From: a virus | Taxonomy: Duplodnaviria; Heunggongvirae; Uroviricota; Caudoviricetes | Reading direction: 5' to 3' (one strand) | DNA: 6,181 bases | IMG/VR virus record: IMGVR_UViG_2693429562_000008 | In this document: positions 2,603-4,245 of the stretch, piece after piece | How positions within the stretch are numbered: position 1 is the first letter of the stretch | How the letters are laid out: every line of letters begins with the position of its first letter | Position numbers and translations under genes: made by a program | Notes under the pieces: generated by a model | What the model saw: only the letters and a program-made list of their open reading frames with translations | Told to the model about the DNA's origin: nothing | Database searches by the model: none

Positions 2603-2739
2603 AGAAAACGCCAGACTGTTAGCCGGGTATCAGTTAGCGGGAGAAATTTTTAAATACTTCACAATTCAGGCGGTTGACTGTTGTCTGGTTTGCGGGGAGT
2701 TTGTTAAAAGAAACTGGCATGGTGAATCCCCCTGTGCGG
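2603..2739 (+). repeat. methyltransferase leader repeat, copy A (includes the MTase ATG at 2719)
   Basis: 137/137 nt identical to 5128-5264. The repeat may continue into the N-run that starts at 2740. Confidence 0.85.
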
Positions 2740-4245
2740 NNNNNNNNNNNNNNNNNNNNNNNNNNNNNNNNNNNNNNNNNNNNNNNNNNNNNNNNNNNNN
2801 NNNNNNNNNNNNNNNNNNNNNNNNNNNNNNNNNNNNNNNNNNNNNNNNNNNNNNNNNNNNNNNNNNNNNNNNNNNNNNNNNNNNNNNNNNNNNNNNNNNN
2901 NNNNNNNNNNNNNNNNNNNNNNNNNNNNNNNNNNNNNNNNNNNNNNNNNNNNNNNNNNNNNNNNNNNNNNNNNNNNNNNNNNNNNNNNNNNNNNNNNNNN
3001 NNNNNNNNNNNNNNNNNNNNNNNNNNNNNNNNNNNNNNNNNNNNNNNNNGGTTCACAAGCAAACCTCAGGCCCACTGCTTTGCGCAAAAGCAGAATGAGC
3101 CTATCAGAGACAGGCNNNNNNNNNNNNNNNNNNNNNNNNNNNNNNNNNNNNNNNNNNNNNNNNNNNNNNNNNNNNNNNNNNNNNNNNNNNNNNNNNNNNN
3201 NNNNNNNNNNNNNNNNNNNNNNNNNNNNNNNNNNNNNNNNNNNNNNNNNNNNNNNNCCCCGCCGTACTTTAAAGTGAAGCCTGAGGGCTGGGATAACCAG
3301 TGGAAGGGCGACGATGATTACCTGAAGTGGCTGGNNNNNNNNNNNNNNNNNNNNNNNNNNNNNNNNNNNNNNNNNNNNNNNNNNNNNNNNCGGGTGCTGA
3401 AACCTGCCGGAAGTCTTTACCTGTTCTGTGGTCATCGCCTGGCATCTGATATCGAAATCATGATGCGTGAACGCTTCAGTGTGCTGAACCATATTATCTG
3501 GGCGAAGCCGTCCGGACGCTGGAACGGATGCAACAAGGAAAGCCTGCGGGCGTATTTCCCCGCCACAGAGCGCATTCTGTTCGCGGAACATTATCAGGGG
3601 CCGTATCGTCCGAAAGATGCCGGGTATGCGGCGAAGGGCAGTGCACTGAAACAGCATGTGATGGCCCCGCTGATTTCTTACTTTCGTGATGCGCGAGCTG
3701 CCCTGGGGATAACGGCAAAACAGATTGCAGATGCCACAGGAAAGAAAAACATGGTGTCGCACTGGTTCAGTGCCGGTCAGTGGCAGTTGCCGAATGAAAG
3801 CGATTATCTGAAATTACAGGCGCTGTTTGCCCGGGTGGCAGAAGAGAAGCATCGGCGTGGTGAACTGGAAAAGCTCCACCACCAGCTGGTGGATACGTAT
3901 ACCTCACTGAACCGGCAGTATGCGGAGCTGCTGAGTGAATATAAACATCTGCGGCGGTATTTTGGCGTGACGGTGCAGGTGCCGTATACCGATGTGTGGA
4001 CGCATAAACCGGTGCAGTTCTATCCCGGGAAACATCCGTGCGAAAAACCGGCAGAAATGCTGCAGCAGATAATCAGCGCTAGCAGTCGTCCGGGTGACCT
4101 GATTGCAGATTTTTTCATGGGGTTGGGTTCGACAGTGAAAGCGGCACTGGCGCTCGGGCGTCGTGCAATTGGCGTTGAGCTGGAGACTGAACGTTTTGAG
4201 CAGACGGTTCGGGAAGTACAGGATTTAGTCAGCCAGAACGGATGA
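2719..4245 (+). CDS. DNA methyltransferase, N6-adenine/N4-cytosine family (PF01555-like, beta-class motif order); N-terminal boundary uncertain
   Basis: PPY of motif IV at 3259-3267 (preceding residue masked) and AdoMet motif I DFFMGLGSTV at about 4108-4137, close to the C-terminus. Host-like codon usage. Frame stays open through every readable fragment between N-runs, and ATG 2719 is in frame if N-run lengths are true. Start could instead lie inside the masked 3116-3256; the readable certain part is 3257-4245. Confidence 0.65.
   Translation: MVNPPVRXXXXXXXXXXXXXXXXXXXXXXXXXXXXXXXXXXXXXXXXXXXXXXXXXXXXXXXXXXXXXXXXXXXXXXXXXXXXXXXXXXXXXXXXXXXXXXXXXXXXXXXXFTSKPQAHCFAQKQNEPIRDRXXXXXXXXXXXXXXXXXXXXXXXXXXXXXXXXXXXXXXXXXXXXXXXXPPYFKVKPEGWDNQWKGDDDYLKWLXXXXXXXXXXXXXXXXXXXRVLKPAGSLYLFCGHRLASDIEIMMRERFSVLNHIIWAKPSGRWNGCNKESLRAYFPATERILFAEHYQGPYRPKDAGYAAKGSALKQHVMAPLISYFRDARAALGITAKQIADATGKKNMVSHWFSAGQWQLPNESDYLKLQALFARVAEEKHRRGELEKLHHQLVDTYTSLNRQYAELLSEYKHLRRYFGVTVQVPYTDVWTHKPVQFYPGKHPCEKPAEMLQQIISASSRPGDLIADFFMGLGSTVKAALALGRRAIGVELETERFEQTVREVQDLVSQNG

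Follow-up and report, generated by a model that had tools for sequence, protein, structure and literature searches.

The window, a stretch of 6,181 nucleotides held as IMG/VR virus record IMGVR_UViG_2693429562_000008 (Caudoviricetes), is the late-regulatory region of a lambdoid prophage. Its methyltransferase gene very probably encodes an orphan beta-class N6-adenine enzyme of the M.EcoGI/M.EcoGII type and of canonical length. The start codon would lie within a run of masked bases (N), and the N-terminal region of 180 codons that a preliminary description of the sequence had assigned to the enzyme would be spurious. The M.EcoGII-type family is already characterised and is sold as a reagent. 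Thus, the gene is a further member of a known family and adds little that is new. The features of the window on which the analysis draws are as follows.

411-785: RusA (PF05866)
782-1636, plus strand: antiterminator Q (PF03589 Antiterm, E 7e-55)
1601-1606 (TTGATT) and 1623-1628 (TAAATT), plus strand: probable pR' promoter, from its resemblance to lambda pR', below the scan threshold
1676-1702, plus strand: terminator tR', from a terminator scan
1739-1991: second, partial tRNA set (five tRNA genes overall in two sets)
2719-2739, plus strand: ATG taken as the start in the preliminary description and the next six codons, within copy 1 of a 137-nt repeat (5' part of STnc100)
2740-3049, 3116-3256, 3335-3390 and 4651-5127: N runs, 984 nt masked in total
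2740-5264, unstranded: block absent from the locus in closed genomes, with all four N runs, the methyltransferase gene, the second tRNA set and the duplicate of the 137-nt repeat
3050-3115, plus strand: 5' untranslated leader of the methyltransferase gene, non-coding, 100% identical to the relatives L004-L013
3154-4245, plus strand: methyltransferase coding sequence, with the start predicted 35 codons 5' of the first Pro of PPY
3256-3267, plus strand: motif IV (xPPY, catalytic), visible as PPY and two bases of the codon before
3664-3897, plus strand: target-recognition domain, a predicted four-helix bundle with helix-turn-helix, by homology to M.EcoGII residues 160-237
4114-4128, plus strand: motif I (FxGxG, AdoMet binding), F-M-G-L-G, encoded by TTC ATG GGG TTG GGT
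4286-4535, plus strand: tRNA genes ileZ-type (CAU), argN (UCG) and argO (UCU), in the same order as in L001, L003 and Stx2a_WGPS2
4571-4650: divergent STnc100 5' part within the absent block
5213-5402: STnc100 prophage sRNA (Rfam, 132 bits)
Also present: a DUF3927 ORF, an iraM gene (minus strand) and the start of a DUF1737/esterase gene

A methyltransferase is certainly encoded. The visible 284 C-terminal residues (window 3391-4242) match the Pfam profile PF01555 (N6_N4_Mtase) far beyond chance, with an E value of 3.6e-31 and 109.3 bits against a gathering cut-off of 26.7; full-length relatives reach E values of 1e-43, and one of them (L003) scores 150 bits. The PADLOC family MTase_II is matched at E 5e-163, all PHROG matches carry the label 'DNA methyltransferase', and the sequence matches in the PDB are beta-class enzymes, for example M.RsrI, CcrM and M.MboIIA. 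The motifs occur in the order IV (xPPY), target-recognition domain, I (FxGxG), which is the beta-class order. Together with the profile match, this bears out the earlier assignment to the beta-class amino-methyltransferases. Motif I ends 43 residues short of the C-terminus (the stop codon is at 4243-4245), in agreement with the earlier placement within about 45 residues of the end. Host-like codon usage had been remarked on, and the composition of the gene is host-like, with G+C at approximately 54% across the gene and 30-40% in the AT-rich stretches 1950-2400 and 5400-6000. Genes of this type are widespread: 1,748 of 5,426 complete E. coli genomes hold at least 80% of a query made of the gene plus the tRNAs.

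PPY is encoded by CCG CCG TAC at 3259-3267, and the relatives have GAC CCG CCG TAC (DPPY). The motif reads DPPY in 13/13 close relatives and in 78/80 distant ones. In the window, the codon before PPY is masked except for its last two bases, 3257-3258 ('cc'). Base 3257 is c, in place of the 'a' of GAC found in 13/13 related copies; this is the sole visible mismatch at the edges of the N runs.

The closest characterised enzyme is M.EcoGII, to which 281 of the 304 visible residues are identical (25/25 N-terminal and 256/279 C-terminal). The M.EcoGII sequence was taken from a machine-read supplement (PMC11551740) that contains reading errors, so the resulting value of approximately 92% is a lower bound. 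M.EcoGII (EGT69837.1) and M.EcoGI of E. coli O104:H4 C227-11 are non-specific adenine methyltransferases of DNA and RNA (Murray et al., 2018; PMC5778455). M.EcoGII is a beta-class protein of 349 aa without extra domains that methylates adenine in any context, in DNA and in RNA; its gene belongs to an E. coli O104:H4 prophage, stays silent in its native strain and slows growth when over-expressed (PMC5778455). Its close homologues are M.EcoGI and the enzyme of phage 1720a-02 (PMC5778455). AlphaFold models show a dimer with a Rossmann core formed by residues 1-134 and 260-349 and a four-helix-bundle recognition domain at 160-237 (PMC11551740). Homologues with 92-93% similarity are routinely annotated as non-specific (PMC6602927).

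The window gene shares with M.EcoGII the motif order and the lack of an endonuclease partner, and very probably the length class (349 aa versus 352 aa in identical relatives). Its usual prophage site, after Q and a 65-aa ORF and before ileZ-argN-argO, would be shared as well, as seen in L001, from a sister O104:H4 strain. The window allele differs in its C-terminus (...DLIV rather than ...DLVSQNG) and in approximately 20 substitutions, including S313L and S197G at positions conserved in the family. Comparable genes annotated as 'DNA methylase' are found in Stx2-converting phages (e.g., Stx2a_WGPS2 gp29 and phage 1720a-02). These encode 352 aa at approximately 93% DNA identity (93.5% for phage 1720a-02 versus the window) and have the same 65-aa ORF and tRNAs. 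In the Stx2 phages, stx2AB lies behind the tRNAs, whereas the window has STnc100, iraM and a truncated esterase gene there, with no toxin gene visible.

Other enzymes of PF01555 are more distant. M.RsrI, CcrM, M.MboIIA and M.PvuII, which have solved structures, share the Rossmann core, with motif IV N-terminal and motif I C-terminal, but the match is confined to two core segments (E 1e-25 to 1e-7) and the central domain is unrelated. Unlike the M.EcoGII family, these enzymes recognise defined sites and mostly have a cognate endonuclease. The M.HaeV/Hia5 group consists of alpha-class phage orphans with relaxed adenine specificity, as cited from Drozdz et al. (2012) in PMC5778455. Its members resemble the window gene in being phage-borne orphans with a presumed anti-restriction role, but FxGxG comes first and DPPY last in them, an architecture that is not homologous.

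The ATG at 2719 is in frame with PPY and lies 180 codons before it, as the preliminary description had it. Of the 540 bases between the two, 451 (83.5%) are N, and the visible bases comprise pieces of 21, 66 and 2. Codons that contain N are never read as stops, so the 509-codon ORF is not an observation. Because 451/540 bases are N, the 'long region' before motif IV was inferred rather than observed; ORFs read through N runs should in general not be treated as observations. The ATG itself falls within a repeat, and in the unmasked copy 3 of that repeat the same frame stops after 25 codons (ORF 5199-5321).

Gap-free relatives provide the missing sequence. A search of IMG/VR with an exact 45-mer from the gene identified ten contigs with 11 gap-free gene copies; the same 45-mer had no match in the species-representative genome collection. 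Six copies (those in L007-L010 and L013 and one of those in L012) are 100% identical to the visible pieces 3050-3115, 3258-3334 and 3391-4650, and the remaining copies have 99.4-99.6% DNA identity with the protein unchanged. The protein of 352 aa is the same in all 11, DPPY occupies residues 35-38, and a TGA lies in frame two codons 5' of the ATG. The preliminary description had named in-frame stops between 2719 and 3257 as a sign of a short enzyme, and this TGA supplies them by proxy. In the gap-free relatives, the 66-nt island corresponding to 3050-3115 ends 10 nt before the ATG and lies in another frame, with an in-frame TGA behind it. In a set of 80 relatives from other species (61-97% identity), no member has room for an extra N-terminal domain: at most 35 codons (median 1) are open in frame ahead of residue 1, and DPPY is at residues 29-35 in all but one.

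Given the 352-aa frame with its upstream TGA in the gap-free copies and the short upstream frames of the relatives, we infer that the true start codon lies inside the N run 3116-3256, approximately 35 codons before PPY. The preliminary description had raised this as an alternative to an extra N-terminal domain, and it is the alternative that the gap-free copies favour. Masking in the source covers the start codon, the DPPY Asp and residues 61-68, whose predicted identity is that of the relatives. The coding span 3154-4245 exceeds that of the relatives by 33 nt, an excess that comes from the over-long N run 3335-3390.

Relatives with identical flanks have 114 nt in place of the 141 N of the window plus one mismatching base, and 23 nt in place of its 56 N. 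On this comparison, the N runs in the window are almost certainly not true to length. The placement of the gene is also in question. The exact 284-aa Q protein of the window occurs in at least ten closed chromosomes, including HE616528.1 (which we take to be Shigella sonnei 53G), with IpaH-type genes nearby. In five closed chromosomes (L015, L017, L018, L020 and L022), window 1-2739 and 5128-6181 are adjacent, with an overlap of 137 nt and 99.9-100% identity, and in closed genomes with an identical Q, position 2739 directly joins 5265. The repeat that forms the overlap (2603-2739 and 5128-5264, 100% identical) comprises the 3' end of DUF3927 and the 5' part of STnc100. Because the block 2740-5264 is missing at the locus in closed genomes with an identical Q, the placement of the gene in the window is doubtful. 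Draft contigs that carry Q are mostly 2-5 kb in length (1,139/1,407 collection blocks), which implies a break near 2740.

Most likely, the position of the gene between two tRNA/DUF3927/STnc100 copies is a scaffolding artefact of a short-read, Shigella-type assembly. A methyltransferase contig of another prophage would have been threaded between two contig ends that belonged merged, and 2739 and the methyltransferase would have no physical link. The apparent 180-codon region is very probably an ORF read through N runs from the ATG of an unrelated, repeated STnc100 element. In the real source, the inner gaps would measure 114 nt and 23 nt, GAC would come before CCGCCGTAC, and a TGA would stand two codons before an ATG that lies approximately 10 nt past ...GAGACAGGC. 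A real structural variant is conceivable in place of the artefact, though less probable. If the order in the window is real, the gene does not come directly after pR'/tR' but is separated from it by tRNAs, two small ORFs and an sRNA terminator. Neither the length nor even the placement of N runs in scaffolded prophages need be right. The idea that the N runs are assembly bubbles collapsed at differences between methyltransferase copies was ruled out, as the two copies in L012 are identical across the gene.

Other readings of the masked structure were weighed against a canonical gene. That of the preliminary description, a methyltransferase of approximately 509 codons from 2719 with an extra N-terminal domain of approximately 145-180 residues before motif IV, is almost certainly wrong. 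With N counted as open, the frame does mechanically span 2719 (or a TTG at 2674) to 4245, but the masked share of the extension, the repeat-borne ATG, the out-of-frame island and its TGA, and the short upstream frames across 80 species all stand against it, as does the lack of an extra domain in M.EcoGII (PMC5778455). It is also very unlikely that the N runs have their true length and hide insertions of 28 nt before PPY and 33 nt after KWL, which would yield a frameshifted pseudogene or an altered variant with a residue other than Asp before PPY. Each of the two N runs does exceed the length of its counterpart in all relatives, base 3257 is c and not a, and the 33-nt excess is divisible by three. 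All other visible bases of the gene are nevertheless identical to relatives that lack insertions, and the excesses total 61 nt, so that the frame would be broken from the canonical start. The N runs moreover bound the block that is missing at the locus, where the 137-nt duplication fits overlapping contig ends and the short Q-bearing draft contigs break near 2740. The particular protein that true-length masks might conceal, with a different N-terminus, a residue other than Asp before PPY (e.g., SPPY, an N4-cytosine signature) and 11 residues inserted behind motif IV, is highly improbable. Were it real, it would be a structurally altered offshoot of the M.EcoGII family that has Leu in motif I and whose target base or handling of the cofactor may have changed.

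An endonuclease gene hidden within the N runs, which would make the methyltransferase one half of a restriction-modification system, is extremely improbable. PADLOC does label the family 'Type II methyltransferase', and 984 nt of the window are masked. The neighbours in gap-free relatives are, however, Q, the 65-aa ORF, tRNAs and STnc100 only, and even the longest N run, of 477 nt, could not hold a typical endonuclease gene in addition to the STnc100 and DUF3927 sequence required there. Furthermore, a non-specific adenine enzyme has no defined site for a cognate partner (PMC5778455). No endonuclease gene was found among the annotated neighbours in L001, L002, L003 and L105 or in the ORF lists of the window and L009, on both strands, which upholds the orphan status proposed earlier.

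The window allele departs from the family consensus (at least 90%; 66 aligned relatives) at three positions, S313L, S197G and V306I. The last is a conservative change. S313L lies in motif I (Leu TTG at 4123-4125), where Ser is found in 66/66 aligned relatives; the motif is FMGSG in 78/79 relatives and FVGSG in one. S197G lies in the recognition domain (3775-3777), where 65/66 relatives have Ser. Because there is no gene-covering match of at least 99% among 5,426 complete E. coli genomes, the allele appears to be lineage-specific. It is possible, though on balance unlikely, that the allele is decaying or impaired, a member of the M.EcoGII family by descent with activity reduced or lost via S313L (and S197G), and thus the relic of a cryptic prophage riddled with insertion sequences. 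This reading agrees with that of a canonical enzyme on identity and differs from it solely on present function. In its favour, besides the two unusual residues and the restriction to one lineage, is the state of the locus in closed genomes, which is an IS-bounded prophage remnant with a truncated DUF1737 gene. Against it, all 11 copies, from 10 contigs, have the same intact ORF, only three positions are off the consensus, and the x positions of FxGxG vary between methyltransferase classes. The Leu at an otherwise invariant Ser of motif I could show how much that Ser matters in M.EcoGII-type enzymes, which are in wide use as tools.

The usual context of the gene is consistent among relatives. 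The order Q, pR'-like promoter, tR', 65-aa ORF, methyltransferase, ileZ-argN-argO was identified in the gap-free contigs and in annotated genomes, and in L009 and L001 the 65-aa ORF and the methyltransferase come directly after the pR'/tR' element. Annotations of E. coli prophages and of Stx2 phages give the order from Q through the 65-aa ORF and the methyltransferase to ileZ-argN-argO, with stx2AB next in the phages. The earlier attribution to the Q-dependent late region thus holds for the gene as it stands behind Q and pR' in gap-free relatives, and is in doubt for its placement in the window.

As in the characterised family, the enzyme would act as a dimer, depend on AdoMet and have a Rossmann-fold core in which DPPY lies towards the N-terminus and FxGxG towards the C-terminus. 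The central four-helix-bundle domain would contact nucleic acid, and adenine would receive a methyl group at N6, with weak or no preference for sequence. Expression confined to the late phase is suggested by the position behind Q, pR' and tR' and by the reported silence of M.EcoGII in the lysogen. The gene would be silent in the lysogen and its product made when Q antiterminates late transcription. Progeny DNA may then be broadly methylated before packaging and so be shielded, once in the next host, from many restriction systems. For the window allele, its family and its position predict non-specific activity, expression in the late phase and a role against restriction, with S313L and S197G lending uncertainty to the function carried over from the family. 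Linkage to tRNA genes was considered as a hint of an RNA substrate and was dropped, as it occurs in 4/78 loci, of the Escherichia type alone.

The 65-aa ORF (phrog_331) is at 2023-2220 in L009 and would map to the N run 2740-3049 of the window. It lies approximately 155 nt upstream of the methyltransferase gene in 58/74 relatives from Enterobacterales, with identity down to 40% in Photorhabdus. Matches to the winged-helix TrmB/MarR families are weak and sub-threshold (E ~0.002), and the ORF has no PADLOC match. The two genes may constitute a conserved module, for example with the ORF as a regulator. The pairing is apparently without discussion in the M.EcoGII literature.

In the prophage Sp5 of E. 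coli O157:H7 strain Sakai (L014 3115-3265), only the last approximately 110 nt of the methyltransferase gene are left. The remnant is located directly behind tR' and before ileZ-argN-argO-stx2AB, and matches window 4135-4576 at 91.7% identity. A deletion in a methyltransferase-bearing ancestor is the suggested origin. The possibility that STnc100 is the pR' leader sRNA StxS of strain Sakai was rejected: the STnc100-like sequence of Sp5 is downstream of stx2B, and Rfam identified no STnc100 between Q and the tRNAs in Sp5.

Several further features of the window were recorded. The 5' part of STnc100 occurs three times (2603-2739, 4527-4663 and 5128-5264); the identity is 100% between two of them and approximately 92%, over 80 nt, for the third. 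Closed genomes have one STnc100 and one tRNA set at this locus, so that an assembly artefact is the probable source of the triplication. The interval from the tRNAs to DUF3927 holds an AT-rich ORF of 117 aa (2102-2455; phrog_2873, no Pfam match). Compared with L009, an indel (window 1590-1636) has removed the stop codon of Q, which is 11 codons longer as a result (284 versus 273 aa), and the extended ORF crosses the hexamers of the pR'-like promoter. The ends of the window, 1-33 and 6149-6181, abut insertion sequences in closed genomes, with IS21-family istA/istB upstream and an IS3-family transposase that truncates the DUF1737/esterase gene downstream. The last 32 nt of the window recur in both orientations in L008 and L010.
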